A DNA stretch of 64,000 nucleotides from an uncultured Acidobacteriaceae bacterium (GCA_963731525.1 CAVSWK010000024.1:72164-136163), one strand, 5' to 3'; shown: positions 7,416 through 50,202, counted from the first letter of the stretch. The notes: generated by a model not told the origin, from the letters alone. Numbers and translations: made by a program.

Positions 7416-7512
7416 GGAAGCGCATGCGGTCCGGTGATCGTCCCGGTCTTCAAAACCGGCGGGCGGCATCTCCGATGTTGCCGGTGTGTTCGACTCACAC
7501 ACGCTTCCGCCA
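7416..7512 (+). tRNA. selC: tRNA-Sec (anticodon UCA)
   Basis: 97 nt: GGAAGCGC...CCGGTGA...CTTCAAA (TCA anticodon)...long variable arm...GGTGTGTTCGACTCACAC...CGCTTCCGCCA. The block pattern matches E. coli selC (GGAAG..CCGGTGA..CTTCAAA..GGTTCGACTC..CTTCCGCCA). Confidence 0.93.
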
Positions 7513-7523
7513 AAACAAAGGAT

Positions 7524-8657
7524 TTAGCCAGCCTTGCGATCTGTTTGCGATCCGTTAAGAGCTAACCCTGCCACTTTCCCACACGCTACGGCCATTTCGT
7601 CGGTGACCACATCCCCGTAGGTGTTCATCGTTGTGCGAATGTCCGCGTGCCGCATCAACTTTTGTTGGACGGTCATCGGAGTTCCCACCGCGTCAAGCCA
7701 TGAGCGGTACGTGTGCCGCATGCTGTGCGTGCTGACGTGCGCGATACCAGCGGCAGATGCGGCTTTCTGGTATGCATCGTTAACGCTGTCGGCTGACCAC
7801 GGCAGACGCCCTAGTTGCGCTGGGGAGGCGAAAATCCAATTCCCCTGTGCGGAGAATCTAGTTGTTTGCTTCCACAGATTGAGTGTGTCGAGCATGGTTT
7901 GGCTGACTGTAATCGCCTCGCGCGAAGTTTCGGTTTTCACTTCATCTATTCGTTGTCGAACGATGCCACGTTCTACGCTGAGTTTTCTGTCGAGCCAATC
8001 CACATCCGACCACCGCAGTGCGAGGCATTCGCTAATTCGCAAACCTAAGCACACGCATACGAGGGCAATGGTGCGGAATATTTCCCGGAGGTGAACGATG
8101 AACCGCTGGAACTCATCGACCGTCACACTGCGCGGTTTGCTACATCGCTTCGACGCGCCTTTGATGGTAACCAGTTCCATAGGGTTTCGCTGTGTCGGCA
8201 CGTCACCGCGCCACATCGCGAAATCCCACAGGATGCGAAGCAATCCGCGAACGGCTGCTCTACTCCGTGGTGTAAGTTCGAGAGATTGCAGCCACAATTC
8301 AGCAGGACGCGCCTGCACGTCTGCGATCTCGCCCTCACCCCACCTCGGGATAACGTGATTCTTCAGCCATGCTTCATACGATCTTCGCGTACTGTAGCGT
8401 TGCGGCATCTTCTCTGCTCGGTACTGTTCGATCAGCGAGCACACCGTAATAATTCCCTCGGTGCTCAACCTCGGGTCCGGCAATGCGTACTGGAAAGATT
8501 GCGCTACTCGCCAAGCCGCTCCCTTGGTTGGATATTCCTCCAAGGTCCCGATTTGTTTCGAACGGCGCTTTCCTTCTTCCCACCACAGGAAATTCCAAGT
8601 TTTCCTTCGTTTGTCAAAGACCACACTACCCGTTTTGTACCGTGCTGCCCTTTTCAT
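7524..8657 (-). CDS. int: tyrosine-type site-specific integrase
   Basis: C-terminal catalytic motifs HSMRHTYRSWL and LMRHADIRTTMNTYGDV (R..HxxR..Y). The stop lies 12 nt from the tRNA-Sec 3' end. Confidence 0.9.
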   Translation of the reverse strand: MKRAARYKTGSVVFDKRRKTWNFLWWEEGKRRSKQIGTLEEYPTKGAAWRVAQSFQYALPDPRLSTEGIITVCSLIEQYRAEKMPQRYSTRRSYEAWLKNHVIPRWGEGEIADVQARPAELWLQSLELTPRSRAAVRGLLRILWDFAMWRGDVPTQRNPMELVTIKGASKRCSKPRSVTVDEFQRFIVHLREIFRTIALVCVCLGLRISECLALRWSDVDWLDRKLSVERGIVRQRIDEVKTETSREAITVSQTMLDTLNLWKQTTRFSAQGNWIFASPAQLGRLPWSADSVNDAYQKAASAAGIAHVSTHSMRHTYRSWLDAVGTPMTVQQKLMRHADIRTTMNTYGDVVTDEMAVACGKVAGLALNGSQTDRKAG

Positions 8658-8917
8658 TCCGCCATCCTTTCGTCAGGGCGCACGGATGGCGTAGTGGATG
8701 TTAGCACGGGTGATTCCAGAAGGACCGCGTCTAAGTCAGCTTGCCGGAAGCGCCAAACGCGACGCTTGGTACCTGATAGTGCAAAGGCTTTCACCCTGCC
8801 TTGCCGAACCCAGAGCAGGAGCGTGCGGACTTTCACCCTGAGGTATCGCGCAGACTCAGCGGCGGTGAGCCATTCGGTAGTCGGAGGAGTTGCGGATTGG
8901 GCAGACGTTGTGGTCAT
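8654..8917 (-). CDS. xis: excisionase-family helix-turn-helix DNA-binding protein
   Basis: WLTAAESARYLRVKVRTLLLWVRQGRVKAF is a MerR/AlpA-type HTH. Its stop overlaps the integrase start (ATGA at 8654-8657). Confidence 0.7.
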   Translation of the reverse strand: MTTTSAQSATPPTTEWLTAAESARYLRVKVRTLLLWVRQGRVKAFALSGTKRRVWRFRQADLDAVLLESPVLTSTTPSVRPDERMAE

Positions 8918-8995
8918 CGCGAATGAGATACTCCCTGGAAATTAATCTTGCCGTTCTTCACTGGAAGTGGTGCATCTTCAAATCATCCGGCGGTT

Positions 8996-9118
8996 TCAAG
9001 ACATGGCGTACCCCGATGTCGTCTCTTTTTCGGCGTCGTCGTGCATCTGCTTGGCGACATATAGTAGGAGAACGCCAACTGCCACAAGACAGAGAACTCC
9101 CAGCAGGGTTATTTTCAT
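8996..9118 (-). CDS. 40-aa hydrophobic membrane peptide
   Basis: MKITLLGVLCLVAVGVLLLYVAKQMHDDAEKETTSGYAMS. RBS AGGAG lies 5-6 nt upstream. The ATG overlaps the stop of the zinc-ribbon gene (ATGA at 9115-9118). It is below the ORF-track length cutoff. Confidence 0.45.
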   Translation of the reverse strand: MKITLLGVLCLVAVGVLLLYVAKQMHDDAEKETTSGYAMS

Positions 9119-9498
9119 TTTTTCTCCTTGTTCCAACTGACCACGCCCGGACAATCCTTCCCTGGACAGCGATAGCCCTCGAATTTGCCGTCCATCCAAC
9201 TGGTCTTGAGCAGATCGGGGACAATCCAAAACGTGGTCCCACATTCGGGGCACTTCCGCTGATACCTGCTTTGGAGGTCGTCCAGTCGTTTCCAGATGTT
9301 GCGTTTTTCGCCTTCGCCAACGAGCTGCTCGAAGATCCGAACGCCGACCTTGCTGCGCACGAACAACTGGACACCGCAAGGGTCACAAATCACGTAGGGT
9401 TTTTTCTTCTTGGTTTCGCGTTCATCAAGACCCTGCCCGCAAAGGGGGCAGGGGAACCGGTGTATCGGACGCTGAATCAGATCTAACGGCACATGCAA
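9115..9498 (-). CDS. double zinc-ribbon protein
   Basis: Two CxxC pairs, twice: CPLCG...CDPCG and CPECG...CPGKDCPG. The start is TTG 9498 or GTG 9492. Confidence 0.55.
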   Translation of the reverse strand: MHVPLDLIQRPIHRFPCPLCGQGLDERETKKKKPYVICDPCGVQLFVRSKVGVRIFEQLVGEGEKRNIWKRLDDLQSRYQRKCPECGTTFWIVPDLLKTSWMDGKFEGYRCPGKDCPGVVSWNKEKK

Positions 9499-9503
9499 TC
9501 TCT

Positions 9504-9590
9504 ATTGTTAATATAATCTAACAATTGCAATTATTATGAATTGGCATCTTGGCACTTGTCAATATAAAAGAATAATCTTGCAATTGTTAA
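9504..9590. promoter_or_regulatory. AT-rich divergent promoter region with palindromic operator-like sites
   Basis: Palindrome ATTGTTA-N8-TAACAAT at 9504-9525. The 12-nt TAACAATTGCAA (9519-9530) recurs inverted as TTGCAATTGTTA (9578-9589). The region lies between the divergent zinc-ribbon and XRE genes. Confidence 0.55.
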
Positions 9591-9615
9591 TGTGCTGCCA
9601 TATCCTACAAACATT

Positions 9616-10014
9616 ATGGAAAACTTCGGGAGCTACATGCGCAGGGTGCGAAAATCGAAGGGTTTGACGCTTAAACAGGTCGAGATCCAGGCTAAAGTCT
9701 CCAATGCCTACATTTCCCAGATCGAGCGAGGGTTGAGAAAGCCTCCCCACCCCGACATCCTCAAAAGGTTAGCCAAAACATACGATGTTCCACACCGGGA
9801 GCTTTTGGTCGTTGCGGGCTACTTGGACGAAGACTCGCAGGCGGTTGCTGCGAAGAGAAAAATCGAAGAGGCGTTTGAGCATGTCCGGACTGATCCTACT
9901 TTTAAGCAAGGAACTCGCCTCAGAGGGACCCATGTCAGCCTTGAAACGAAGCGCTTTATCGTGGAAATGTACGAAAAGCTGACGCAGCGCAGCTTATTGA
10001 AAGAAGGAGCCTAA
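9616..10014 (+). CDS. XRE-family helix-turn-helix transcriptional regulator
   Basis: MRRVRKSKGLTLKQVEIQAKVSNAYISQIERGLRKP is a canonical Cro/C1 HTH. Start at ATG 9616. Confidence 0.85.
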   Translation: MENFGSYMRRVRKSKGLTLKQVEIQAKVSNAYISQIERGLRKPPHPDILKRLAKTYDVPHRELLVVAGYLDEDSQAVAAKRKIEEAFEHVRTDPTFKQGTRLRGTHVSLETKRFIVEMYEKLTQRSLLKEGA

Positions 10015-10020
10015 AACAGG

Positions 10021-10635
10021 TTGGAATTGTTAAACGGTGAAATCGACGCTTCTCCGATTGTGGGGTTCTGCAAGGCGGTAATTTCTCGCCATGCTGAGCA
10101 CTGGCCACCCACAGAACAAACACTGGCCGAGGAGTTTGTGCAATGGTTGGGTCTCAAGACCTTCTTGACCCGAGTTGAGCTAGTCGAACTGTGCGTATCC
10201 AAGAAGATCAATCTCTCATTCGCTGAACTGCCCTCCGAACTTCGTGGCTTCAACTGCTCATTTGAGAATAAGGCGGAAATTGTTATTGCCCAGCGTGAGA
10301 CGGTCCCCGGCGCTGATTTGCATACCCTTTTTCACGAGCTCCGAGAATTGCTCGAAAACGCTTTTGTTGAACATAGATATGCTACTTTGAGCGCGGACGA
10401 TTTATTGGAAGTACAAGCCGACGTTTTCGCAATGTCGGCACGCATGCAAGTTGTTATAAAGGAAATTCTTGCTTTTGTGGAGATTGTAAAGAATGCTAAC
10501 GCGAAATGGGCTCGCTACCTTGGTCTTGGCGTTATTGGTATTACCGGAATCATTTACCTGCTCAATTGTGTTTTCCTGCCGCGGCTCGAAGAAATAGAAT
10601 CTGAGGTGAAACGCCAGCGTTACGTACGTATGTAA
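10021..10635 (+). CDS. ImmA/IrrE-like (COG2856-type) domain protein with C-terminal TM helix, HExxE variant
   Basis: Sits immediately after the XRE gene. LFHELRELLEN occupies the position of the HExxH motif, and EVQADVFAMSARM resembles the downstream E..AN.FA motif. TM segment YLGLGVIGITGIIYLLNCVFL. TTG start. Confidence 0.45.
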   Translation: MELLNGEIDASPIVGFCKAVISRHAEHWPPTEQTLAEEFVQWLGLKTFLTRVELVELCVSKKINLSFAELPSELRGFNCSFENKAEIVIAQRETVPGADLHTLFHELRELLENAFVEHRYATLSADDLLEVQADVFAMSARMQVVIKEILAFVEIVKNANAKWARYLGLGVIGITGIIYLLNCVFLPRLEEIESEVKRQRYVRM

Positions 10636-10930
10636 CGTTGGCCCACCAAGTTCTTCTCGATGGCCAATGCGGAATCTCTTCACTCACCAGTGTGGTCATA
10701 GTTTTTCCGCTTGACACTGGCCATTAACTCGCCTATATTCCCCGGCAATCCTAGTAAGAGAGATTTTGATCTCAAGCGGTCTCTGAGACTTTCTTGGCGG
10801 GACTTCTTCCCTTCCACACGGGTGTTCACCCGTCTTTGTGCGCGAAGGACATGTCGCGTCCAAATTACTGCGCGTCGAAGGATGCGCTGCAATTTCTATA
10901 AATGCTTTCTCCGCACGCAAAAGGAAGATT

Positions 10931-11719
10931 ATGCAGATTCGCTTTCTCCGCCGTTTCCTGCCTTTCGTGTTTTTCCTCTACAGTTCGGTTTCTCTTTTCT
11001 CCCAGAACAAGACGCCGGTCCGCGATGACCATGCGCTGAAAATAGTGCAAACCGCGATAAACAATATGGGTGCGGCAAGCAGCGCGAGCGGCGTGCAGGA
11101 CTGCGTGCTTACCGGGATCAGCGTAGCGGATTCCAACCCTGACCTCCGCAAGGATTTTACTTGGACGATTGCGGGAGACGAGTTCCGTTTCGAAGTGAAA
11201 TCTGCGAAGGGAACAGGTCTCTTTGTTAGCGGTCATGGAAGTCCTGGACGGATGTCCAATGGAACGTTCTCCCGTATCAACTACCACGTGGCTCGCGCGA
11301 ATGTCCCATACTACTTGCCCGGCTTACTGTTGGCGCGAGAACTCGCCAATCCCAACTTCACAGTGAAATATGTTGGTGCGGTCACGACCGAGGGACGGCG
11401 AGCCGCGCATATTCATCTCGGTGACGGATCAGACAAAATCGCAGCCTTGGTGACGCCCCAGGAGTGGTACTTCGACCTCAATTCCGGATTGCCGCTGCGC
11501 GTCGAGTTTCACATTCCCACAAATGAAAACGCGGAGGATTTGTTTAACGGCGCCTACGAATTTTCAGATTTTCGTTCGGTCAGCGGCATGCTCGTACCTT
11601 TTCAAATCTCATTCTCGCAGGAACACCAGCCGCTCCGAGTGATCTCTTTCAATTCAGTGGCGTTCAACGTAGGAGTTTCGCCCTCGGTCTTCGACGTCCC
11701 GAAGGGGGTGGGTCAATGA
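10931..11719 (+). CDS. hypothetical secreted protein, translationally coupled to the RHS gene
   Basis: ATG 10931 with RBS AAGGAAG. Signal peptide FLPFVFFLYSSVSLFSQ. The stop overlaps the RHS start (ATGA at 11716-11719). Confidence 0.55.
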   Translation: MQIRFLRRFLPFVFFLYSSVSLFSQNKTPVRDDHALKIVQTAINNMGAASSASGVQDCVLTGISVADSNPDLRKDFTWTIAGDEFRFEVKSAKGTGLFVSGHGSPGRMSNGTFSRINYHVARANVPYYLPGLLLARELANPNFTVKYVGAVTTEGRRAAHIHLGDGSDKIAALVTPQEWYFDLNSGLPLRVEFHIPTNENAEDLFNGAYEFSDFRSVSGMLVPFQISFSQEHQPLRVISFNSVAFNVGVSPSVFDVPKGVGQ

Positions 11720-12787
11720 AACGTCACGCCATCAGAGTTTGCATGCTACTCGCTTTGTTTGTGTCCGGCTGTGCTGGTTGGTCGATGGCGCAGGACCAAG
11801 ACGACATTCGGCAAGGTATCAACGCCTATGGGACATACCGTGGCGGAGACATTGATTTGGTCAGCATGACGAACGGAAATGTGACTGTGCAAATTCCGCT
11901 AGTCTCTTATCCACAACGCGGCAAACTGAATCTCGGCTACAGGCTCGTGTACAACAATAAGATCTACGCGCAGAGAGTGATTTGCATTATCGATGAGTGC
12001 ACGACTTACGTTGGGCTCCGAAGTCTTTTTTCGCCTTTGGTTCCGGTCGCAGATGGCAGCTTTACTTCGAAATCGACCACCATCCAAGAAGTCGGTGGTA
12101 CTGGCACAGTGACCTTCGCCAGCTATTCCTTGGTTGCTGCCGATGGGGCCAGTCACCAATTGGCCGCGCTGTCTTCAGCGGGCACTAATTTTGAAACCGT
12201 CGATGGAACAGGGCTTTTCTCCTCCAGTGGGTATCTAACTGATGCGAACGGAACGCGAGTTTGGGAGGAAGACACTAACGGGAATCAAATTACCCAATTG
12301 TCTGGCACACTAACGGATACCGTGGGACGAAGTATCCCCAACCTGCCCGGCGGGACCAGCTCCAGCGGCGCCGGTGCATGTCCAAGCGGGCCACTACCGG
12401 TCTATTCCAACTCTTCGTGGGTGGTTCCGGGACCAAACGGCGGTACCTCAACGTTCGTATTCTGCTACGCGCAGGTCGATGTCGTCGAATCCTTTGACAT
12501 AACTGACGACACGCAAGTTTGGGGGTATTTGAACTTTCTCCAGAGTGTGGTCTTGCCCAATGGAACGGCCTGGACATTTCAATATAGTACCGATGGCTAT
12601 GGCGATCTGACGCAAATCACGTTTCCCACTGGGGGAACAATTTCCTACGTCTGGACAGAGGGCGCGACTTGTACGGTTGCTCTGCCCCCTCGATGGTTGG
12701 CTTCGCGTACTGTGAACGCAAATGATGGTACGGGAAACCATACCTGGACCTATTCATATGTTGGTGGGCCTACAACGGTTGCCGACC
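11716..12787 (+). pseudogene. RHS/YD-repeat lipoprotein, 5' fragment (interrupted by IS3-family element)
   Basis: Lipobox-like LFVSGC signal. The reading frame runs straight into the IS left end at 12788. Confidence 0.8.
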
Positions 12788-12847
12788 TGTCCCGCCTCAG
12801 CTGGAAATGGAGAAAGCGTTCGTCCGTTAAGATAGCGGAGCGAACGT

Positions 12848-13162
12848 ATGAGAAAAGAGCGCAAGCATTACACAGCTGAGGAGAAGGTGGCCATTCTGCG
12901 GCGCCATCTTTTAGACAAGGTCCCGGTTTCCGATCTGTGTGAAGAACTGGGCCTGCAGCCGACGGTGTTCTACCGCTGGCAAAAGGAGTTCTTCGAGAAC
13001 GGAGCGGCCGCCTTCCAAGCGACGGAACGTCCTCGCCGCCAGGCGGAGGAGAAGCAGAAACGGATTGAGTTCTTGGAGAAGAAGGTGCAGACCAAGGACG
13101 AGGTCCTGGCCGAGCTGATGGCGGAGCACATCGCGTTAAAAAAAAGCGTTGGGGAACTCTGA
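12848..13162 (+). CDS. IS3-family transposase OrfA (HTH)
   Basis: YTAEEKVAILRRHLLDKVPVSDLCEELGLQPTVFYRWQKEF is a typical IS3 OrfA. Confidence 0.9.
   Translation: MRKERKHYTAEEKVAILRRHLLDKVPVSDLCEELGLQPTVFYRWQKEFFENGAAAFQATERPRRQAEEKQKRIEFLEKKVQTKDEVLAELMAEHIALKKSVGEL
13138..13145 (+). promoter_or_regulatory. A8 slippery run, probable programmed -1 ribosomal frameshift site (OrfA-OrfB fusion)
   Basis: The A-run AAAAAAAA followed by G lies near the end of orfA. orfB is in the -1 frame relative to orfA (start positions mod 3 are 2 and 1). Confidence 0.7.
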
Positions 13163-13185
13163 CCGAGACCTGGGTACCACACGAT

Positions 13186-14205
13186 GTGCGGGATCAGGTG
13201 GTGGATTTCGTTCGGCGCTGGTCGGAGAAGACCGAGATCAGCGTCGGCCGATTTATTCATTGGCTGGGGGTGACCGTGAGCAAGTTTTACAACTGGGGGC
13301 AGCGCTATGGGCGAGTGAATGAGCACAACGGTTGGGTACCCCGCGATTTCTGGTTGGAGACGTGGGAGAAAGAAGCCATCATCGGCTTCCACGTGAACAA
13401 TCCGTTGGAAGGCTATCGGCGACTTACGTTCATGATGTTGGATCAGGATGTGGTGGCAGTGAGCCCGGCGAGCGTATGGCGTGTGCTGAAACAAGCGGGA
13501 TTACTGACGCGCTGGAAAGCGAAGCCGTCGCGCAAGGGCACTGGCTTCGAACAGCCGCTGCAGCCGCACCAGCACTGGCATGTGGATGTTTCCTATATCA
13601 ACCTGTCGGGTACGTTCTATTACTTATGCAGCGTGCTGGATGGATGCAGTCGTTTTCTGGTGCATTGGGATCTGCGGGAGTCGATGAAGGAAGCGGACAT
13701 CGAGAGGATTCTGGAACGAGCCAAGGAGAAGTACCCGGGAGCTAAGCCGCGGATCATCTCCGACAACGGACCGCAGTTCATCGCTCGGGACTTCAAGGAG
13801 TTCATTCGTATCTCCGGGATGACGCACGTGCGCACCTCGCCGTTTTACCCGCAGTCGAACGGAAAAATCGAACGCTGGCATAAGTCGCTCAAACGGGAGT
13901 GCATCCGGCCACTGACCCCGTTGACGCTGGAAGATGCGCGCCGCCTGATTCAAATCTACGTGGATCACTACAACACGGTGCGACTGCACAGCGCGATCGG
14001 CTATGTGACGCCGCAGGATCGGCTCGCCGGACGACAGGCCGAGATCCACGCGGCTCGCGATCGCAAGCTAGAGGAGGCGCGTAGACGACGGCAACTTCGC
14101 CGGCAGCAGACGGCGTCTTTAAGATTTGCACACTCTTCAACCGCAGCTACAATGACCTCGCCGGGTGAAACGGAAGCGGGCTCTGCCGGGAGGCAACCAT
14201 GCTGA
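13186..14205 (+). CDS. IS3-family transposase OrfB (DDE/rve integrase core)
   Basis: HWHVDVSYI..., ISDNGPQFIA, YPQSNGKIERWHKSLKRE, YNTVRLHSAIGYVTP are rve-domain motifs. Confidence 0.92.
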   Translation: MRDQVVDFVRRWSEKTEISVGRFIHWLGVTVSKFYNWGQRYGRVNEHNGWVPRDFWLETWEKEAIIGFHVNNPLEGYRRLTFMMLDQDVVAVSPASVWRVLKQAGLLTRWKAKPSRKGTGFEQPLQPHQHWHVDVSYINLSGTFYYLCSVLDGCSRFLVHWDLRESMKEADIERILERAKEKYPGAKPRIISDNGPQFIARDFKEFIRISGMTHVRTSPFYPQSNGKIERWHKSLKRECIRPLTPLTLEDARRLIQIYVDHYNTVRLHSAIGYVTPQDRLAGRQAEIHAARDRKLEEARRRRQLRRQQTASLRFAHSSTAATMTSPGETEAGSAGRQPC

Positions 14206-14399
14206 GGGATAACCTGGTGGGGCTCATCGAGCCGATGCTCAGCAGCGCGGGAGCCAATCCTCTCGCGCTCTGCATTGCGATGAACGAGTCATCGGACGAT
14301 AGACCCCAAGATGCCTTGAAAATCCCCGCCCCGAAGGGGCGGAATCTTACACTAACGGAGAACGCCGCTTCTCCATTTCACGCTGAGCCAAAACAGACC

Positions 14400-16870
14400 C
14401 GCTTGGGAACCACACGGTTTACACGAACACTCAATTGTCCTTGTGTACTTCCTACACCACGGAGATCCAGTATTACCAGGGCGCTGTCCAGTCTGCGAAC
14501 CTGTTGAAGACTGTATCCACAACGTACTCCAGGACAGTCAGTCCGTTCGCGCCGGAAGTGGGCGAAGCCTACATGAACATTGTGCCCACCCAGATCACGA
14601 CCACTTGGGCAAACGGCAAGACCAGTATGATGACGAAATCCTACGATGCTGGGTTTACTTTCCCAAGCCCCAGATACAACGACCCAACGCAATACACGGG
14701 GATCTACGGAAAAGTGCTGGTCGAGAAGGAGTACGACTACGGCACAACCTCGGGCCAGCCTGGACCGCTGCTGAGACAGACGAACACCAGCTACGCCTGG
14801 CAAAGTCCCAATCCGAATTATTCCACCTATCTCAGCAACAACATGCTGAATCTGATTTACTCAACCCAGATCACCGATGGCACCAATCAGAAGGCCTACA
14901 CCCAGTATGGCTACGATGAAACCTCGACGATTGCGTCCGGAATGGGAGCGGCTCAGAATCTCGACCTTTCGGTGTGGACGGGCACCCTCCGCGGTAATCA
15001 AACGTCGGTGAATCGCTGGCTGAACCTACCCACGGTGCAGACGCTGACCAGCAAAACGACGTACTACGACACTGGGATGCCCTCCGTCGCGAAAGATCCT
15101 CTGCTCAATCCGACGACCTATTTCTATTCGAGCACATTTCAAGACGCATATGTGACGCAGGTCCAAAACGCGTTAAGCCAGAGCACATACCACAACTACG
15201 ACTACGACACCGGGTTGCTGACTTCTACCACCGATCCGAACGGTCAAGTCACCAGTGACAGCTACGACGTTGACTGGCGGCTGACGAATGTTACCCGCCC
15301 GACAGGCGGGGGCCTGACCTCATTCTGCTACACGGACCTCGGTGGCTCGACTTGCACTCAAGGCAGCGCACCATATCAAGTCGTTATTACCAAGGAGATC
15401 ACCAGCGCGAAGAATGAAACCGCGACTGCGATTGTGGATGGAGTCGGGCGGCTCGAACACACCCAGCTGAACTCTGATCCCGAAGGCACCGACTATGTTG
15501 ACGATGGCTACGATGGAGTGGGAAACAAAGCCACGACCAGCAACCCCTATCGCACGACTTCCGACTCCACCTACGGAATCAGCACGAATAGCTACGATGT
15601 CCTCCATCGCGTGACGCAGGTCACGCAGCCCGATGGCTCCCTTCTCAAGACCGCATATTGTGGCAATACAACCTTGGTCACGGATGAGGCTGGGCACTGG
15701 CGTCGAAGCACGGTTGACGGCTTGGGCCATCTGATCGAAGTGGATGAGCCCAATTCTCCGACTGCGACCGTCAATTCCAACGGTTGTCCGGGCTCCAACG
15801 ACCCGATCTGGGCAACCACGTACGGATACGATCAGCTGGGCAATCTCCTGAGCGTGCTGCAAGCCGGTTCTCGCCAGCGCACCTTTACATATGACTCGCT
15901 GTCGCGCCTTTTGACTGCTACCAATCCTGAATCCGGCACCTTGACCTATACATACGACGCCGATGGAAACGCGACCACGAAGGTCACTCCTCAGCAGGAC
16001 CAAAGTAGTCCTTCGGTCACCACAACGCTTAGCTATTGCTATGACGCGCTGAATCGTATCACCAGCAAGGCTTACAGCAACCAGTCGTGCCCGCAGACTA
16101 CTCCGGTCGCAACGTATTCGTATGATGGCAGCGGATGTCTGGGGCAATCCTCGTGCTACAACATCGGCCATCGAACGGGAATGACGGACCCAGCCGGGTC
16201 GGAATCCTGGGCGTATGACACGATGGGACGGACCGTCGTCCAGTCACGCACCACCAACAGCATTACCAAGACCACGAAATACACCTACAACCTGGATAGC
16301 TCGGCGGCCACGCTGACCTATCCCAGCGGGCGAGTCATGACCTACACTCCCGATACTGCTGGTCGTCCGAGCAACGTCAAGGACAACACCACAAGTGTCT
16401 ATTACGCCACCGGAACCTGTGCGAACGATGTATCGGGCAACGGGGTGTGCTACGCACCACAAGGAGCGGTAGCTCTGCTCCAGAATTCGTCCGAAATCGT
16501 TTCTACGCACATCTACAATGACCGGCTCCAGCCCTGCTGGACATATTCGACCACGGGGACCGCTCTGGCTTGGAGCACGACGCTTTGTACCGGCACTGCG
16601 ACCGCTGGGAACATGCTCGACCTGAAATACAACTTCAATCTTGGCTCGGATAACGGGAATCCGATCAGCATTACCAACAATCGCGTTACCGACCGCAGCC
16701 AGACCTTTAGCTACGACCAGTTGAACCGCATTTCGAAAGCGCAAACCACGGCAACTCATTCCAGCGATCCAACCGATTGCTGGGGCCAGGCATTCGGCTA
16801 TGCCCAACGATCCCAGTGGTCTTGGCCCGGACTGGCATCAGAATCCAGACCACAAGAACCCGAACGGTGA
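14400..16870 (+). pseudogene. RHS/YD-repeat protein, 3' fragment (core repeats)
   Basis: Many YD repeats (YDYDTGLLTSTTDPNGQ, YGYDQLGNLL, FTYDSLSRLLTATNPESG, YTYDADGN, FSYDQLNRI). In frame with 11716-12787 once the IS and one GACC copy are removed. Confidence 0.85.
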
Positions 16871-17165: not shown

Positions 17166-17190
17166 GGCCACAAGGACAGGAGTGTTTCAA

Positions 17191-40520: not shown

Positions 40521-40534
40521 GCGTGCTCCTTTCG

Positions 40535-41296: not shown

Positions 41297-41346
41297 GATT
41301 CCTCCGATCAGCAGTTTAATGTCACTCTCGCTTCAAGGCGAGACGC

Positions 41347-42954: not shown

Positions 42955-43102
42955 GGGATTCGCTCCTCGGTGAATTGAACGGACGCCGTCTAGGATGACG
43001 ATCAAAGGCTTCGGGATGCAGGAATTGTGTGTGGCGCCAAGCCGATTCATTCAATGCGGCAATGGGTAGGCTTCGCACCTGGATCGTCTTCGCAATGGAC
43101 GC

Positions 43103-44437
43103 CTAGTCCGTTGAACATCCGGGCACCGCCGGTCGCCTGAAGCGGCGCAACCCGATAATTGCACCGGCCGCTGCCACGGACCCATATTCCAGCAGCATAA
43201 TCCAGCCAGGAACTGACCACGGACGCCCAACCGCGCGCAGATGCCAAACGTAGTAAGTAGGGATAATGCTCACTGTCCAGATGATGATCGGCACCGTCGT
43301 GGCCGAGCGCAGGAACGGCAGCAGCCAGAGCAGGTACCATGGATATACGACCGGCGCACAGAGAAGCGATGCTGCCATGGGCCATGCAAATGCGTCCGAA
43401 GACCATGCCTCAGACTTTCTTCTCAGCCAGATTGCGGTAAGAAAGCCGACGAGCACTGCCAGCCCAATTGCAAGCTGCGGCGCCGCCACTCGCTCGAGCG
43501 TTGCAAATACCGGATCATTGAAGCGGAAACTCTGCACGTAAGTGCCGAGTGAGCCGATCGGAATCCGCCCGTGGTTCAGAAATGGTACGTATAGGAGTCC
43601 GACCACGACTGCCGCCAGGGCCGCATCGCGCATACGAACCCGCCTCCAGTAAAGTGGCAGCAGTACAATCGGGAGGAATTTCACTGCGACAGCCAGCCCG
43701 AATGCCAGTGCCGCAACCGTACGCCAGCGCCGTTCTAGCGCGGCGAAAGACAGCAACAGCAGCAGCACGCCGACAATATCGATGTGACCGCTGCCCGCCA
43801 CTTCTGTCGCCAGCAGTGGGTTCCAGGCATACGCCAAAACCCAGTGCGTTCCTTGCCCACTGCGACGCAATATGTCGAGCAAAACGAGAACGATCGCCAA
43901 GTCGCAAACTACAAATGCTACTTTCAGCGCAAAGATGGACTCATGAATCGCGGTTACGGCGCGGAAGAAAAGCTCAGCGCCCGCTGGATATGGGCTCGGC
44001 AAATCCGGGTTGTTCAGCGTGCGGGTTTCGGGTGTGTGCAACGCGCCGAGCGCAGGATCGCTGGGAATGACAACATACGGGTTATAGCCGAGCCGTTGCA
44101 CGCGGCCATCCCAAACATATCGATGAATGTCATCATCTGAACCCGGCGGCATCAGTAGAAATGGAAGATGCCACAGCGCGGCCAACACGAGCCCGATGAC
44201 GATGACGCGCCGCGGGAATTTTGGCGTGGAGAAGAACTCACGAATGGCGAAGAGGTACGCGATGCCCGCAACTGCCAGCGGAATGATAAAGGACGCTGCA
44301 CCGATGCTGCTGAACTTGCGTGAGCAGATCGTCAGCGCCACAAGCAAGATGGTGCCGAACCCGTACAGCCTGCGGGATGGCGTGAACTTCACAGGTCTCC
44401 CGTGCCCGTCCGCAACTGTGCCACCGCCTGTCCCCAC
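43103..44437 (-). CDS. polytopic membrane glycosyltransferase (GT87/DUF2029-like)
   Basis: More than 10 predicted TM helices, with an early DDDIHRYVWDGR loop typical of GT-C mannosyltransferase-like proteins. Confidence 0.55.
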   Translation of the reverse strand: MGTGGGTVADGHGRPVKFTPSRRLYGFGTILLVALTICSRKFSSIGAASFIIPLAVAGIAYLFAIREFFSTPKFPRRVIVIGLVLAALWHLPFLLMPPGSDDDIHRYVWDGRVQRLGYNPYVVIPSDPALGALHTPETRTLNNPDLPSPYPAGAELFFRAVTAIHESIFALKVAFVVCDLAIVLVLLDILRRSGQGTHWVLAYAWNPLLATEVAGSGHIDIVGVLLLLLSFAALERRWRTVAALAFGLAVAVKFLPIVLLPLYWRRVRMRDAALAAVVVGLLYVPFLNHGRIPIGSLGTYVQSFRFNDPVFATLERVAAPQLAIGLAVLVGFLTAIWLRRKSEAWSSDAFAWPMAASLLCAPVVYPWYLLWLLPFLRSATTVPIIIWTVSIIPTYYVWHLRAVGRPWSVPGWIMLLEYGSVAAAGAIIGLRRFRRPAVPGCSTD

Positions 44438-45120
44438 TGTTTCAGCCAGACCGCCGTTCGTGGCGCCCTAGCCGGAGCGAGCCGCAGTTCCGCGGCAAGC
44501 CGAGTTAAGTCGCCCTCCACGTCGATGTCGTAGAAGGGATCCGTGAAGCCAACGGAAAGCTGCAGTCCGCGAGCGCGCGCCAGCAGGGCCTCAAGCGCGC
44601 TCTTAGTGCCCATGCCGTCGCCATCGAAAAGCGCTGGATGAGCGGCCTTGGCCCCTACGAGATAATAGCCGCCATCATGTGTCGGTCCAACAACCACGTC
44701 GTGCCCGGTGAGCGCCTCGAACGCGCTCCCGAGAACCGAAGCCGGCAGATGCGGGCTGTCGCTGTTGAAGGCAACGACGCGTTGCCGGCCAGGCGCTGCG
44801 AAGTGTGCAAACACCGAGGTCAGGCCTGCCGCAAGGCCCTCCCCTTTCTGCGCCACGACAACCGCCCTACCTCGCGCCAACCGCGTTAGTTCTTCGACAT
44901 CCGAAGCGGGGCACATAATGGCAACCTCCACAGTGCCCAACGAGCACGCTAGCACCATTGTGTCGTCCAAAAGGCAGCGATAGAGTTCGGTGACCGCTTC
45001 AACTGGAAGGCTCTGAGCTAAACGGGTCTTGACCATGCCCGGCCTGGGTGCTTTTGCCATGACAACCAGCGTGCGGCCCCTGTTAGGCGAATGTGCTGTA
45101 TTTTCGCTGGAGGATTCCAT
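44389..45120 (-). CDS. DUF2064-family (TIGR04282-like) protein
   Basis: VVMAKAPRPGMVKTRL signature. Start at ATG 45120. Confidence 0.65.
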   Translation of the reverse strand: MESSSENTAHSPNRGRTLVVMAKAPRPGMVKTRLAQSLPVEAVTELYRCLLDDTMVLACSLGTVEVAIMCPASDVEELTRLARGRAVVVAQKGEGLAAGLTSVFAHFAAPGRQRVVAFNSDSPHLPASVLGSAFEALTGHDVVVGPTHDGGYYLVGAKAAHPALFDGDGMGTKSALEALLARARGLQLSVGFTDPFYDIDVEGDLTRLAAELRLAPARAPRTAVWLKQWGQAVAQLRTGTGDL

Positions 45121-45141
45121 AAGAGATCGCTGTGCCAAGAC

Positions 45142-45865
45142 TCACGCCGGCCGTGGCATTCCGGCCCTTCGATGCCGAAAATAATAGCGCACTATCAGAC
45201 TGAGGATGAACCACGCCGCTCCGACTGTGCCCCTCAGCGTACCGCTAATCTTCGATTTCCCAATGCGCGGATAATAGCTCACCGGCACCTCAACGATGCG
45301 GAATCCCCCGAGCGCTACCTTTTAGAATTATTTCAACCGCCCAGCCGTACGTGTTCTCTTGGAGCTCAAGCCGGCGAAGGACATCTGCTCGCCCGGCGCG
45401 GAACGGTCCGAGGTCGCTTATCCTTAGACCATACAAAAGCCTGATCAGGCCAGCCGCCAGGCGGTTACCAAACGCGGCGTGCCAAGGCAACGCCCCACGA
45501 ATGCTCTGCTTCCCCAGGCGCGAACCCAGCGTAATATCGGCACGTCCGTCAATGATTGGAGCTAAGAGAATCGGCAGTTCAGCGGGTCGATCGCTGTAAT
45601 CGCCGTCGAGGAACACTACAACGTCAGGGCTACTTGCACCAGCCAGTCCGGTCAAACAGGCGCGACCGTATCCGCGGCGAGGTTCGTGGAGGACGCGGGC
45701 TCCCATCTTGGAGGCGATCTCGGGAGTCCCGTCGGTTGAATTGCTGTCTACAACCAAGACCTCAGTGACAATATCGGCCGGGAGATCGGCTAAGACGCGG
45801 CCGATGGATTGCGCTTCATTGTGCGTAGGAATGACGACCGACACTCGCACTTGATCTTCTTTCAA
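45142..45865 (-). pseudogene. family-2 glycosyltransferase with +1 frame break near 45318-45324
   Basis: VSVVIPTHNE and FLDGDYSD motifs. After ...EIILK the conserved continuation (GFRIVEVPVSYYPRIGKSKISG...) is in another frame, ending at 45142. Confidence 0.7.
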
Positions 45866-45894
45866 GTAAATATGCTCAAGTCAACACGCCCAAG

Positions 45895-46386
45895 TCACCA
45901 CCATGGCGAGGACGGCCAGCGCCGCGCCAGCAAGGCGTCGACGCCCCACGCTCGACCGGCGCGCCCCACCGCCAGCGCGAGCGCTGCCATCACCGAAACC
46001 AGCAGTTCCCAAATCCACGACGTGCCCCACTCCGACACCCAAAGGCTGCCCAGATACAGAAATGCTACAAACGCGACCGGGCGCGTCAGCAGACCGATGA
46101 CCAGCAGGATTCCGAGACCGATCTCGGTCACCGCCTGCATAGGAGCCGCCATCGCGGCGTGACTCGCCGCCAAACCCATCACTGCCTTCCACGCGGCCGG
46201 CGAGTGACTCGCCTTTATGTAATAGTTGATCAGGCCAGCGTAGCCCGCTGGGGTGTAGAGACCCTTTCCCAGATTTTCGAAGAAGACCCACACCAACATT
46301 GCGCCGATCGTGACCCGTACTATTGCCAGTCCATTTGCCGCGGGCAGGGTGGCTGCATTTTGCGTTGGGGTTGCGTTCGTCATCAT
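45895..46386 (-). CDS. DoxX-family membrane protein
   Basis: Four TM helices. The pattern resembles DoxX/TQO small-subunit proteins. Confidence 0.6.
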   Translation of the reverse strand: MMTNATPTQNAATLPAANGLAIVRVTIGAMLVWVFFENLGKGLYTPAGYAGLINYYIKASHSPAAWKAVMGLAASHAAMAAPMQAVTEIGLGILLVIGLLTRPVAFVAFLYLGSLWVSEWGTSWIWELLVSVMAALALAVGRAGRAWGVDALLARRWPSSPWW

Positions 46387-46675
46387 CGTGGCCCTCGTAA
46401 CATATGGATGCCGTGCCAGTTTGCAACGGGAATACAGGGCAATATCTTAAGCGGTTCTCCCAGTTCTTGCTAGTGGATGTACTCGCTTGACGGAGCCTCC
46501 GGCCATGGGCTATAACGATCTTCCCCAGCTACCTGGACGCGCATGCTCATCCGCTGCAATCGCGGCTTCACTTGACGGTAGATTCCTCGCCGCCGCCCGG
46601 TGGTTGCGCTAATCTCTCTTCCAACACTACTCACATTCATCATCGGTGCACAGTCCCTGCACTAAGAAGGAAGCC

Positions 46676-47791
46676 ATGCATTCTCAGCGGATTCGAATCA
46701 AGCCCGTCTTTTTGAGTTTCGTGGCGGCTAGCGTTGCTATAGGAATCTCCGTCCGCGCGTTTGGTGGCGATGCCTCCAAGGCGACGCAACCAAAGCAGGC
46801 GTCGTTCCAGGTAAGAAATGAATTCAAGGTGCAAGTACCGAAAGGGGCCAAGACGGTGCGCATGTGGTTCAGCGTTCCACAGGAAGACGCCGTGTCTGTG
46901 ATTCGTGAATTCAGCGTCGCCGCCGATTTTCCCGTCCACTACTACCGGGACGATTGGGGAAATCGCGTAGGGTATGCGGAAGTCAATGCACCCGCCGAAG
47001 GCCCGATCACGATCCGCGAAGCGTTTGGACTGACGCGCACCGAGACTCGCAACGACATCGACCCAGCTAAAACCCGTCCGCTGACAGATCAGGAACGGGC
47101 GGCGCTCTTCGCGTATCTGCAACCTTCGAGCCACGTCATCATCACCGACCAGCTGAAGTCCCTTTCCGCTTCGATCGTCGGGGGCGAAACAAATCCCATT
47201 CTCGCTGCTCGAAAGATTTACAACTGGACGCTCGAAAACGTGGATTATTGGGTGAAGGACCCCGACCACCTGAAGGCCTCCCCGGTGGGCAGCACAGAAT
47301 ATTGCCTGAGGACAAAAACTGGGAACTGCACGGATTTTCATTCCCTTTTTGCATCGCTCGCTATGGCGGCCGGTATTCCCACCCGCATGGTCTACGGTTC
47401 GCTCCTAAAGCCCACCTTGAATGGCATCCAAATCGACGGAAGCTATCACTGCTGGATCCAGTTCTTCGCGCCCAACTACGGCTGGCTCCCGCTTGACGTT
47501 TCCCTCGCGAATATCTACGGCAAGGAGTTCCCAGTCACAGATAAAAATAAAAAGCTCGTCGAGCTGACGACGGCGACCGGTTACAAGGGTCTCGATCCAA
47601 GCAAAGTCGATTATTACTTTGGAAACCTCGATGAGAGGCGCGTGACGTGGTCGATGGGGCGTGACCTGATCCTGCAGCCTCCGCAGAATGACGGGCCGGT
47701 GAATGCGCTCGCGAAAATCTACGTCGAAGTGGATGGCAAACAATCCGCGGATTGGACTCGCGAATTCACCTACACCGAGGTCGCGAAATAG
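46676..47791 (+). CDS. transglutaminase-like cysteine protease-fold protein (secreted)
   Basis: TGNCTDFHSLFASLAMAAGIPTRMVYG...YHCWIQFF...GWLPLD gives a Cys-His-Asp triad context. Confidence 0.8.
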   Translation: MHSQRIRIKPVFLSFVAASVAIGISVRAFGGDASKATQPKQASFQVRNEFKVQVPKGAKTVRMWFSVPQEDAVSVIREFSVAADFPVHYYRDDWGNRVGYAEVNAPAEGPITIREAFGLTRTETRNDIDPAKTRPLTDQERAALFAYLQPSSHVIITDQLKSLSASIVGGETNPILAARKIYNWTLENVDYWVKDPDHLKASPVGSTEYCLRTKTGNCTDFHSLFASLAMAAGIPTRMVYGSLLKPTLNGIQIDGSYHCWIQFFAPNYGWLPLDVSLANIYGKEFPVTDKNKKLVELTTATGYKGLDPSKVDYYFGNLDERRVTWSMGRDLILQPPQNDGPVNALAKIYVEVDGKQSADWTREFTYTEVAK

Positions 47792-47891
47792 TTGTTAGTT
47801 GTTAGTCGTCGGTCGTCAGTCGTTGGCAAACGGCCATCGACGATCGACCAACGAATTCAAAGTAGAATTCTTTCCAGCAGAGGAGACCACA

Positions 47892-49286
47892 GTGGAACTT
47901 TGGAGACCTGACCCCACTTTTTACCCTTCACCGCGAATGGCGATGAAAGCGCCCGCGGAAAAGCTGGCATTTGTGGCCATGCTCAACGCGGAAGATAATG
48001 GACGTCCCGATGCCCTGGGTGTGGTCGATGTGGACCCGGCGTCCACGACTTATGGTGGACTGGTGGGCCGCGTGGACATGCCCAACCCCGGCGACGAATT
48101 GCACCACTTCGGCTGGAACGCTTGCAGCGCTTGCCTCTGCCCATACATGCCGCATCCGCATACGGAGCGGCGCTACTTGATCGTGCCGGGCATCAAGTCT
48201 TCGCGAATCCACGTTATTGATACGAAACCCGATCCGCGAAATCCGAGAATCGTCAAGGTGATTGAGGCCAACGTCCTGGCTGAACGTGCGGGCTACAGCC
48301 GGCCGCACACAGTGCATTGCGGTCCTGAGGGAATTTTCTGCAGCGCGCTTGGCTCCGCTACGGGAGACGGTCCGGGCGGAATTTTCGTCATGGATCCCGA
48401 CAGCTTTGAGATTTTGGGAAAATGGGAAATCGACCGCGGGCCGCAATTTCTTGCGTACGACTTCTGGTGGCATTTGGGCTTTGACACAATGATCAGCAGC
48501 GAGTGGGGAACGCCGAACATGGTGGAAACCGGCGTCAACCCAGAAATTCTTTTGAAGGGCGGCTACGGCCACTCGTTGCATGTGTGGGATCTGCGAAAAC
48601 GCCGTCACCTGCAGACATTGGATTTGGGCGCCGAGCAACAAATGGCTCTGGAGCTTCGCCCGGCACACGATCCGAGCCGCGCGTACGGATTTCTTGGCGT
48701 AGTGGTATCGCTGAAAGATTTGTCCGCTTCCATTTGGGTTTGGCATCGCGACAATGGCAAATGGGGCGTGACGAAAGTGATCGAAATTCCCGCCGAGCCC
48801 GCCGAGCCCGAAAAGTTGCCGCCGTTGCTCAAGGGATTCAAGGCCGTGCCGCCACTGATCACGGACATCAATCTGTCGCTCGACGACCGCTTCCTTTATA
48901 TCTCCTGTTGGGGCACCGGCGAATTTCTGCAATACGACGTGTCCGACCCTTTCCATCCCAAAAAGACAGGTTCCCTGCATCTGGGTGGTATCGTGCGCCG
49001 CGCTGGACATCCGAAGAATCCCAGCGCGCCCTTGAACGGCGGCCCGCAAATGGTGGAGGTGAGCCGCGACGGACGTCGAGTCTATTTCACGAACTCGCTT
49101 TATGCACCGTGGGACGCGCAGTTCTATCCGGACGGAATTCAGAGCTGGATGGTAAAGCTCGATGCCAAGCCCGAGGGCGGCATGGAGATCGACCCGAAAT
49201 TCTTTCTTGAATTCGGGAATCTCCGCGGCCATCAGGTCCATTTGGAGGGTGGCGACGCCTCGTCCGACTCTTACTGCTACTCATGA
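47892..49286 (+). CDS. selenium-binding protein family (SBP56; methanethiol-oxidase-like)
   Basis: FYPSPRMAMKAPAEKLAFV, ELHHFGWNACSACLCP, RRYLIVPG..SSRIHVIDTKPDP. GTG 47892 is preceded by GGAGAC. Confidence 0.85.
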   Translation: MELWRPDPTFYPSPRMAMKAPAEKLAFVAMLNAEDNGRPDALGVVDVDPASTTYGGLVGRVDMPNPGDELHHFGWNACSACLCPYMPHPHTERRYLIVPGIKSSRIHVIDTKPDPRNPRIVKVIEANVLAERAGYSRPHTVHCGPEGIFCSALGSATGDGPGGIFVMDPDSFEILGKWEIDRGPQFLAYDFWWHLGFDTMISSEWGTPNMVETGVNPEILLKGGYGHSLHVWDLRKRRHLQTLDLGAEQQMALELRPAHDPSRAYGFLGVVVSLKDLSASIWVWHRDNGKWGVTKVIEIPAEPAEPEKLPPLLKGFKAVPPLITDINLSLDDRFLYISCWGTGEFLQYDVSDPFHPKKTGSLHLGGIVRRAGHPKNPSAPLNGGPQMVEVSRDGRRVYFTNSLYAPWDAQFYPDGIQSWMVKLDAKPEGGMEIDPKFFLEFGNLRGHQVHLEGGDASSDSYCYS

Positions 49287-49945
49287 ACCATTCTCCGCTC
49301 TGGCCCTGGGCTGCGTTGTTTCTTCTCGGGGCCTACCATGGCGTCAATCCGGGAATGGGCTGGCTTTTTGCTGTCGCACTTGGAATGCAGAAAAAGAGCG
49401 CCTCTGCGGTATGGCAATCCCTCGTGCCGATTGCCGCAGGACATTTTGTTGCGATCGGGCTGGTAGTGGCTGCGGCGGTCGTTGCCGGTGCAGTGGTGCC
49501 CTTGGGTTACGTCAAGATAGCCGCCGCTTGCGTTCTTCTTGCCTTTGGACTTCACCGGTTAATACGGAAAAGCCATCCACGTTGGGGCGGAATGCAAATC
49601 GGTTTTCGCGATTTGTGCATTTGGTCCTTCCTGATGGCTTCCGCTCACGGTGCCGGCTTCATGCTGCTGCCCATCTTGCTGAAAATGTCAGCGCTCCACG
49701 CGGCGGCTGACTCCGGCGATTCTGCTCACCATCTGCACGCGCTCGGTTTGGCCGGACCTTGGACCGCGTCAATCGCCTTGCTTGTCCATACGCTCGGATA
49801 TCTTCTCGTGACCGGGCTGATCGCCTTCGTCGTCTATAAGAGGCTGGGTCTCGACATTCTGCGAACAACCTGGGTCAATTTAGACCTGATCTGGGCCGTG
49901 GCGCTCATCGCCACCGCTGGCTTCACACTGCTGGTTCCCACGTAG
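49283..49945 (+). CDS. six-TM membrane protein, NicO/RcnA-like putative metal transporter
   Basis: GAYHGVNPGMGW resembles the G..HA..PGHGK NicO motif. His-rich loop SGDSAHHLH. The ATG overlaps the SBP56 stop (ATGA). Confidence 0.4.
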   Translation: MNHSPLWPWAALFLLGAYHGVNPGMGWLFAVALGMQKKSASAVWQSLVPIAAGHFVAIGLVVAAAVVAGAVVPLGYVKIAAACVLLAFGLHRLIRKSHPRWGGMQIGFRDLCIWSFLMASAHGAGFMLLPILLKMSALHAAADSGDSAHHLHALGLAGPWTASIALLVHTLGYLLVTGLIAFVVYKRLGLDILRTTWVNLDLIWAVALIATAGFTLLVPT

Positions 49946-50177
49946 GTTCTGATGTCCAAACGATGGATGCGTATTCCCCTTCGATTAAGCGATAGCGGTC
50001 ATCCGTCATAGCGCCGCGTAATATGCTCGATCTTGGGGTCGCCTGGCTGATCGCCGAGCTCAACGAGGAAGGCCAAGGCGGGCTAAATCTGTGCTTGATA
50101 ATGACGGAAGTTAGAATTTTCACCGGAATACGCGATTGATTCTAAAGGCTCTGCCTTTGTTTGCAACACCGGTGCAC

Positions 50178-50202
50178 GTTCGACTCACACACGCTTCCGC
50201 CA
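50178..50202 (+). repeat. direct repeat of tRNA-Sec 3' end (att-like, 25 nt)
   Basis: GTTCGACTCACACACGCTTCCGCCA is identical to 7488-7512. A degenerate CCGGTG match lies just upstream. Confidence 0.9.

Follow-up and report, generated by a model that had tools for sequence, protein, structure and literature searches.

The 64,000-nucleotide (nt) stretch of DNA analysed here (the window; GCA_963731525.1, CAVSWK010000024.1:72164-136163) comes from an uncultured Acidobacteriaceae bacterium and carries, directly 3' of its selenocysteine tRNA gene (tRNA-Sec), a 42.7-kb array in which copies of the tRNA 3' end delimit three segments, named here A, B and C outward from the tRNA. We propose that the array arose by tandem accretion through repeated site-specific integration, A being a live element and B and C decayed ones, and put the probability of this reading at about three in four. 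A genome scan with the PPDK_N-domain protein encoded in the right flank places the host among uncultured Terriglobales/Acidobacteriaceae near 'Candidatus Sulfotelmatobacter'.

ARAGORN places a tRNA-SeC(tca) gene of 97 nt at 7416-7512 (plus strand), and it scores 67.5 bits against the Rfam model RF01852 (gathering score 47). The original prediction had placed its end at 7512 and described three copies of its 3' end in the same orientation (24 nt, 66 nt with two mismatches, and 25 nt), all of which is correct to the base. The exact 24-mer TTCGACTCACACACGCTTCCGCCA, tRNA positions 74-97, occurs four times, always on the plus strand, starting at 7489, 21745, 32837 and 50179; in 100 dinucleotide-preserving shuffles it did not occur once, even with three mismatches allowed. 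Successive repeats are 14256, 11092 and 17342 bp apart, 42,690 bp in total. In the cloverleaf the anticodon loop occupies positions 33-39 and the T-loop positions 74-80; the first base of the T-loop (position 74) is where the 24-nt repeat begins, and the 25-nt repeat begins one base earlier, with the last base of the T-stem (position 73). The 66-nt repeat begins at position 32, one base ahead of the anticodon loop. As had been proposed, the start points thus fall at the two canonical crossover sublocations, on the margins of the T-loop and of the anticodon loop. Every fragment terminates precisely at CCA, with the match at 32795-32860 continuing for one base (A), and the sequences beyond show no relation to each other. 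The two mismatches of the 66-nt copy, at position 57 in the variable-arm loop and at position 66 (G-C to G-U), are both structurally neutral, and ARAGORN calls no tRNA there. When the sequence on the 5' side of each repeat (24, 25 or 66 nt) was aligned locally to the tRNA, the scores were no better than for shuffled sequence, giving no sign of longer, degenerate tRNA similarity. The array agrees with the Islander definition of an island integrated at a tRNA gene in its regenerated tRNA gene at one end, its displaced direct fragments of that gene (three, all on the plus strand), its absence from a related genome with an empty site, and its integrase gene, which A and the array as a whole contain but B and C taken singly do not.

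Relative to the sister species Terriglobales bacterium SMAG_U9048 (L013), which has an empty site, all 42.7 kb are inserted at the 3' end of tRNA-Sec, as originally claimed. In this genome, the closest found (PPDK_N protein 96% identical), the order is tRNA-Cys, tRNA-Gly and tRNA-SeC, followed after 70 nt by the PPDK_N gene. Window positions 1-7512 are 94-97% identical to L013 1531-9930 and positions 50178-53286 are 95% identical to L013 9906-12989; when 7513-50202 is removed in silico, the remainder is collinear with L013 over the junction (396/413 identical, no gap). Such a precise empty site supports the array as a whole, not its individual segments. Across 170 related loci, no homologue of any of the ~60 ORFs in the three segments lies within 10 kb of tRNA-Sec or of PPDK_N.

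Since the source is a contig of 141,764 nt from a metagenome-assembled genome (MAG), and related contigs break at insertion sequence (IS) copies and near 49.15 kb, a misjoin at the short tRNA-fragment repeats might be suspected. The repeats, however, are just 24-66 nt long, and all four junctions of the array are crossed by independent Joint Genome Institute (JGI) metagenome contigs at 99.8-100% identity, in assemblies of two other samples (3300010379, 3300032160; Table 1). The breaks in the metagenome contigs coincide with the 1.6-kb IS copies and not with the tRNA fragments. An assembly artefact is therefore extremely improbable.

Table 1. Features of the tRNA-Sec array and contigs spanning its junctions (positions counted from the first nucleotide of the window)
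Feature	Position	Strand	Remarks
tRNA-Sec, intact, anticodon TCA	7416-7512	+	attL of the array; common core is its last 24 nt, 7489-7512
Segment A, ~14.3-kb integrative element of tRNA-Sec-specific family	7513-21744		
Tyrosine integrase of A, 377 amino acids (aa)	7524-8657	-	PF00589, E = 7.7e-21; stop codon 11 nt from tRNA 3' end
Two tandem arm-type repeats (TTGCGATCTGTT, TTGCGATCCGTT)	7534-7556	+	Left end of A
Excisionase-like helix-turn-helix gene of A, 87 aa	8654-8917	-	Overlaps integrase start by 4 nt; reading frame intact
Rhs/YD-repeat toxin gene of A, split by IS3-family insertion	10838-16870	+	Reading frames 10838-11719, 11716-12879, 14435-16870; RHS_repeat and YD_repeat matches
IS3-family IS copy 1, 1608 bp	12788-14395	+	HTH_Tnp_1 and rve domains; 100% identical to 28549-30156
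Right arm of A	21642-21744	+	Arm-type repeat 21653-21664, then family-conserved ...TTGAATTTACGTT..GGA just 5' of the 24-nt repeat
24-nt tRNA fragment (positions 74-97)	21745-21768	+	attR of A, left boundary of B
Segment B, ~11.1 kb, without recombinase	21769-32794		Pfam
Left copy of paired 24-nt direct repeat of B	21831-21854	+	62 nt inside left end; candidate arm-type site
Right copy of paired repeat of B	32650-32673	+	Ends 121 nt ahead of the 66-nt fragment
66-nt tRNA fragment (positions 32-97, 2 mismatches)	32795-32860	+	attR of B, anticodon-loop sublocation; left boundary of C
Segment C, 17.3 kb, without mobility genes	32861-50177		Pfam
25-nt tRNA fragment (positions 73-97)	50178-50202	+	Distal boundary of the array
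Native right flank: tRNA trailer and PPDK_N-domain gene (50272-53316)	50203-53316	+	95% identical to L013 9931-12989, directly 3' of L013 tRNA-Sec
Junction tRNA-A			Spanned by L093/L094
Junction A-B			Spanned by L095 (covers 14269-28643)
Junction B-C			Spanned by L096 (covers 32472-36205)
Junction C-flank			Spanned by L011/L012 (from about 49150 onward)

Segment A and its element family

Only the tRNA-proximal segment encodes an integrase, as the original prediction had stated: PF00589 is present in A, and Pfam and tblastn searches found none in B or C. The residues R207 (GLR207), H311-x-x-R314, H337 and Y347 are all present by inspection. PF00589 is the sole domain recognised, a P4-like N-terminal domain not being detected, and the NCBIfam matches, to generic Xer and integron models, fall well short of the cut-off scores. 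The excisionase-like protein encoded beside it is 74% identical to the product of an HTH_17 gene upstream of the integrase gene in L099 and reaches 29.7 bits with TIGR01764 ('excise'; cut-off 28.8).

At E < 1e-20, 4394 homologues of the integrase were found. Among those checked, homologues at 87% (P0002), 79% (P0018) and 75% (P0038) identity are each encoded 11 nt from a tRNA-SeC gene, while one at 69% (P0105) adjoins tRNA-Ser(gga) (11142-11231 in L193 and L195); the family therefore changes its target tRNA between 75% and 69% identity. Where the far ends of related elements were within reach, the same 24-nt repeat lies 9.1 kb (L097/L099) or 10.9 kb (L103/L104) from the tRNA. All that A has in common with the 9.1-kb element is the tRNA-integrase-excisionase module (7416-8875, 86.6%) and the right arm (21654-21771, 118 nt, 85.6%), the cargo of the two being different; the right ends of both the L097 and L103 elements show homology to its right arm. 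At up to one mismatch the window has the motif TTGCRATCCGTT in three places and no others, 7534, 7545 and 21653, that is, at both ends of A. It is also found in L097, whereas the L103 element has CACCTGCC repeats at both ends instead. As the motifs co-vary between left and right ends from element to element, in the way that integrase-binding sites would, we assign them an arm-type role.

These observations describe a tRNA-Sec-specific integrase-excisionase element family of Terriglobales, delineated here, with an integrase of at least 75% identity, an 11-nt spacing, an overlapping HTH_17/excisionase gene, a distal 24-nt repeat and a conserved right arm. Segment A has every one of these features and is a member of the family with defined ends; C has the core without the arm. 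On its sequence, A is a bona fide element that is probably still competent for excision. Its attP is predicted to read ...ACGTTGTCATGCGGA followed by the 24-nt core and AAACAAAGGATTTAGCC; were A lost, the tRNA-B junction would be the full tRNA followed by TTTAGTTTCAGTGATT, and the predicted array-free junction is the full tRNA followed by GTTTTCAATCAAGCG.

In a second species, which is more distant (L001-L010; its peroxiredoxin is identical), left-flank synteny is exact as far as the tRNA 3' end and lost beyond it. About 90-215 nt 3' of its tRNA-Sec (locus coordinates 10912-11035) lies a frameshifted remnant of ~125 nt from the C-terminus of an A-family integrase, with no distal tRNA repeat within 10 kb. 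Occupation of the site followed by integrase decay thus recurs in the clade.

The cargo of A includes the interrupted Rhs/YD-repeat toxin gene, an XRE-type regulator, YcxB and DUF6984 proteins and an 827-aa FG-GAP protein. The L097/L099 element likewise encodes an Rhs protein (1401-1595 aa), and the sister element L103 has a primase-like module among its genes. The IS3-family insertion has a second copy in B; the two are in direct orientation, with orfA/orfB and imperfect terminal inverted repeats, and lie within target duplications of GACC (copy 1, 4 bp) and TTT (copy 2, 3 bp). Their identity points to recent transposition inside the array, while recombination between the two copies was rejected because each has its own target duplication. 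Pfam detected no relaxase, coupling protein or type IV secretion system (T4SS) domains in A, B or C, and no phage structural or packaging genes among the ~70 open reading frames (ORFs) scanned. Neither the 24- and 25-nt cores nor the 5' part of the 66-nt block had an exact match in IMG/VR (0 hits).

A per-segment composition profile had been suggested as a check on the three-element view. It sets A apart: its GC fraction is 0.550 and its tetranucleotide profile correlates with that of the flanks at 0.877, dropping as low as 0.61 at 8-12 kb, the most atypical values of the three; C, at 0.957, is near the flanks, with B at 0.918.

Segments B and C

Segment B encodes a GAF-TonB_C protein, a GAF-AMIN-amidase between 650-nt direct repeats, the second IS3 copy (28549-30156), a DUF2934 protein and an IS110 transposase (31049-32098). 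In another Terriglobales bacterium (L191), a chromosomal locus with neither tRNA nor integrase nearby matches its region 21914-24421 at 91% identity, and the TonB-GAF family comprises hundreds of proteins that are 65-88% identical. Close to its two ends lie the copies of a paired direct repeat (21/24 identical, with an exact 15-mer). This 15-mer is found only twice in the window, against 0.11 occurrences expected at up to two mismatches. The pair resembles the arm sites of A, which suggests that the two ends of B belong together.

Several further features of B were observed in passing. The fusions of GAF with TonB_C (21995-23596) and of GAF with AMIN and Amidase_3, a cell-wall amidase (24469-26700), are unusual. 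The direct repeats bracketing the amidase gene (23662-24311 and 26829-27463, 88% identical) each encode a small paralogous protein. There is also a perfect 26-nt inverted repeat (27508-27533 and 27645-27670) with a 111-nt spacer; the interval 27518-27657 has a 77% match at the extreme end of an unrelated contig (L163) and could be a small mobile repeat.

Segment C holds, in rearranged form, a copy of a cluster conserved in Terriglobales (YceI-like, methyltransferase, radical SAM, GT87, DUF2064, GT2 and DoxX) and in addition encodes isochorismatase, cytochrome P460, ABM, short-chain dehydrogenase/reductase (SDR), glyoxalase, transglutaminase and SBP56 proteins. In L198-L201 the cluster consists of DoxX, GT2, DUF2064, GT87, YceI-like, a 244-aa gene, a hydrolase, radical SAM and methyltransferase genes, with no tRNA or integrase nearby, and C is 80-90% identical to it in amino acids and 84% in nucleotides. 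Compared with the L198-type cluster, the YceI-like gene of C is relocated and the hydrolase is present only as a fragment. The GT2 gene (45140-45870) has a frameshift near 45320 relative to its 235-aa L198 homologue, which makes it a pseudogene or reflects a sequencing error. Two homologues of the 244-aa gene (37522-38325 and 42200-43021, 84% identical to each other) bracket a 3.8-kb block. This block, with the isochorismatase, cytochrome P460, ABM monooxygenase, SDR and glyoxalase genes, appears to have been inserted into the conserved cluster. Nothing comparable to the paired end repeat of B was found in C, and an 11-mer common to the right ends of B and C was dismissed as within chance expectation. 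The presence of a gene for the SBP56 'selenium-binding protein' (47799-49286, 640 bits) inside an array at the selenocysteine tRNA is probably a coincidence.

Both segments are bounded by tRNA fragments, and so by attachment (att) sites, and no recombinase, relaxase or T4SS domain was found in either, which is the definition of a cis-mobilisable element (CIME). They are best read as decayed, integrase-less remnants of this CIME-like kind, and we infer that they were formerly autonomous or mobilisable. The arm-type motif of A is absent near 32795 and 50178, and since the far ends of B and C lack it the integrase of A is probably unable to excise them. The original prediction had counted three elements: A is genuine, but B and C, which lack recombinase and transfer genes and have homologous chromosomal clusters elsewhere, are not established as independent mobile elements. 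Nor do they represent recognisable island families, a possibility we rejected because homologues of their TonB-GAF and YceI-like genes lie in ordinary chromosomal contexts with no tRNA or integrase.

History of the array and its alternatives

The accretion history that we envisage starts from the single tRNA-Sec gene of this Terriglobales (Acidobacteriota) genome serving as an attachment site for tyrosine-integrase elements. At each integration the crossover would have fallen inside the tRNA, the element's own copy restoring the 3' part and the old 3' part ending up at the far end of the newcomer. B would have entered earlier than A, through an anticodon-loop crossover, leaving the 66-nt fragment behind and giving the working tRNA its C57 allele, and C would be the segment bounded distally by a T-loop-type fragment, that of 25 nt. 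A would be the latest arrival, with a core running from the T-loop to CCA and a cargo made up of the Rhs locus, now broken by IS3, and the FG-GAP protein. B and C would later have lost their recombination genes and become fixed remnants, like CIMEs.

Crossover positions and timing are what we infer from the arrangement of the fragments. B must have entered a full tRNA gene, because integration at the anticodon loop needs at least positions 32-97, and A arrived after B because it sits between the tRNA and B. Position 57 agrees with this: the working tRNA of the window has C, whereas the 66-nt fragment and the tRNAs of all relatives (L013, L001-L010, L097, L103 and L196) have T, which fits replacement of the 3' 66 nt by the attP copy of B. 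Of the order C, B, A originally proposed, the part that stands is that B preceded A and that A is the newest; the place of C is not fixed, and the proposed order is one of several allowed. C may have been the first into the tRNA, or may have come later through the T-loop site within the 66-nt fragment. The rise in tetranucleotide correlation to the flanks from A through B to C is compatible with C being the oldest segment, and fits equally well with a C cargo drawn from a close relative.

Several observations weigh against accretion as the origin of all three segments. Pfam searches, including 10 additional small ORFs, found no integrase, excisionase, relaxase or phage genes in B or C, and neither tblastn with the A integrase nor sensitive blastn of A against the left ends of B and C found an integrase remnant. 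No integrase able to make the 66-nt crossover was found anywhere, and no second type of fragment appeared in any locus fetched. The right end of C is unlike the right arm of the A family despite its identical core. Genes of B and C are 84-91% identical at the DNA level to ordinary Terriglobales chromosomal regions, about the divergence of the flanks between species, and neither similarity nor composition therefore shows B or C, and least of all C, to be foreign. The sole empty site is in another species, whose lineage might have lost the array precisely. Finally, no genome was found with just one or two of the segments; the search of relatives that had been suggested for an empty site or partial occupancy yielded the former but not the latter. 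Exact-protein look-ups (peroxiredoxin, PPDK_N, integrase, TonB-GAF, YceI-like) retrieved only same-population contigs, 99.8-100% identical, with no intermediate occupancy, and in a metagenome scan with PPDK_N tRNA-Sec adjoined the gene in none of 80 loci.

The lack of intermediates is also what would be expected if B and C, or all three segments, had been joined in an earlier host and had arrived as a composite by a single integration between the tRNA and the 25-nt repeat, leaving the internal fragments as relics. Transfer of whole tandems is documented in other systems (PMC5704250), all three of the internal and distal cores are identical, and B and C have a cargo of the kind usual in Terriglobales, which makes a related donor plausible. 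Yet the arms of A form a matched pair, as in single elements elsewhere, so that A at least is its own unit, and T57 of the 66-nt fragment is the allele of the local clade, as expected if the end of the resident tRNA had been displaced, though a donor may have had the same allele. We regard acquisition as a composite as unlikely.

The ordinary character of B and C, whose genes are widely conserved in Terriglobales at interspecies-level identity, and the host-like composition of C also suit a history in which A alone was mobile. B and C would then be native DNA placed between tRNA fragments by rearrangement (aberrant excision and re-integration, or recombination between old att sites), and L013 would be a derived, precise deletion. 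The neighbourhood is indeed rearranged in nearly all relatives, where PPDK_N lies beside tRNA-Arg or tRNA-Lys or, in one MAG, far from tRNA-Sec. Against such rearrangement stand the fragments, which start exactly at the two canonical crossover sublocations and stop exactly at CCA. The C cluster, moreover, with its rearrangement, duplicated gene, frameshifted GT2 and truncated hydrolase, appears to be a decaying extra copy. Excision from an array like that of the window predicts C57; the T57 of the L013 tRNA argues against such a derivation. We therefore hold a native origin of B and C to be distinctly unlikely. It is highly doubtful, too, that tRNA-Sec of Terriglobales acts as a gene-capture platform, loosely like a very large integron, with B and C as integrase-less cassettes that would take ordinary chromosomal operons from one species to another and be integrated and excised in trans by resident integrases such as that of A. 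C does have the exact 24-nt core of A, but B would need an unseen anticodon-loop integrase. Successive integration remains the reading that we prefer.

Flanking DNA, known systems and meaning

Around the array, the PPDK_N gene repeatedly adjoins tRNA genes across Terriglobales, in shifting contexts: in L015, L021, L060 and L114 its homologue comes directly after tRNA-Arg(tct) or tRNA-Lys(ttt), not tRNA-Sec, and in one MAG it lies 1.1 Mb away from tRNA-Sec. L013 has ~3.8 kb between the PPDK_N and repeat-protein genes (12989-16767, against window 53286-53397) that are not in the window, a second indel near tRNA-Sec. Beyond it, a Big_1/invasin-like repeat protein gene with tandem units of ~327 nt (65-86% identical) occupies 53867-57521; it is split into two overlapping ORFs in the window and is a single gene of 1097-1217 aa in L011/L012, so that repeat collapse or a frameshift is likely. 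The otherwise identical L011/L012 contigs have 179 of their 181 differences from the window in the 1.5 kb at 57500-59000, where a Ser/Thr kinase gene encoding 1659 aa in L011/L012 appears in the window as ORFs of 292 and 1368 aa. To the left of the array, an 88-nt inverted repeat (2978-3065 and 3410-3497, 81% complementary) surrounds the tRNA-Cys/tRNA-Gly pair.

Arrays of this kind are known from other bacteria. Islander (Hudson, Lau & Williams 2015, PMC4383910) lists 1836 islands of the T-stem type and 2083 of the anticodon type, the sublocations following Williams 2002, and 125 tandems of at least two and four of at least three islands in 2168 genomes, with an integrase required in every member. 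Its tandem arrays resemble the present one in the regenerated tRNA at one end, the direct displaced 3' fragments, the use of T-stem/loop and anticodon crossovers and the presence of several islands at one tRNA gene (PMC4383910). They differ in that each member has an integrase under the strict definition of a tandem, whereas here each member has a fragment and only A an integrase; the Islander pipeline would for this reason report one island here. The host also differs, being an uncultured peat-soil acidobacterium.

Another parallel in organisation is accretion between integrative and conjugative elements (ICEs) or integrative and mobilisable elements (IMEs) and CIMEs in Streptococcus (ICESt1/ICESt3, IME_Sag2603_tRNAlys; Pavlovic 2004, Bellanger 2011, reviewed in PMC5704250), where a live element stands in tandem with decayed ones that have kept their att sites but no longer have integration and transfer genes. 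There too the sequence of events is integration, decay, and then entry of a newcomer into the regenerated target, one live element with integrase-less, att-retaining CIMEs is the common outcome, and whole composites have been seen to transfer (PMC5704250). Unlike those systems, no segment here contains conjugation or mobilisation genes, and mobilisation in cis would be only hypothetical.

The same target, with alternative or multiple occupants, is used by the selC islands of Enterobacteriaceae (the locus of enterocyte effacement, LEE; SHI-2; PAI-I536), which have P4-type integrases, and by tRNA-Sec phages of Pseudomonas (Pf) and Burkholderia. The integrase of A is unrelated to theirs beyond the catalytic domain and remote to solved structures (E about 1e-5), and cargo and phylum differ. 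In its gene content A also resembles the Rhs islands, small integrase-excisionase elements with polymorphic-toxin cargo: its integrase-excisionase module lies at one end, its cargo is variable, and the Rhs/YD-repeat protein is followed by small candidate immunity ORFs. It differs from them in that its toxin gene is interrupted by an IS and no secretion-system genes are linked to it.

The interest of a triple array was overstated in the original prediction, tandems at tRNA genes having been catalogued (PMC4383910) and stacks of live and decayed elements being usual (PMC5704250). Tandem islands, both crossover sublocations and the targeting of tRNA-Sec are already amply described. The locus is a clear but ordinary case of islands piling up at a tRNA gene, in which only A is still demonstrably a mobile element, and it leaves the understanding of island formation unchanged. 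It does provide a cleanly bounded island accretion in an uncultured peat-soil acidobacterium, from a group whose mobile elements are barely described. The large Terriglobales tRNA-Sec element family to which A belongs may help to trace gene flow between strains of Terriglobales, or may supply site-specific integrases.

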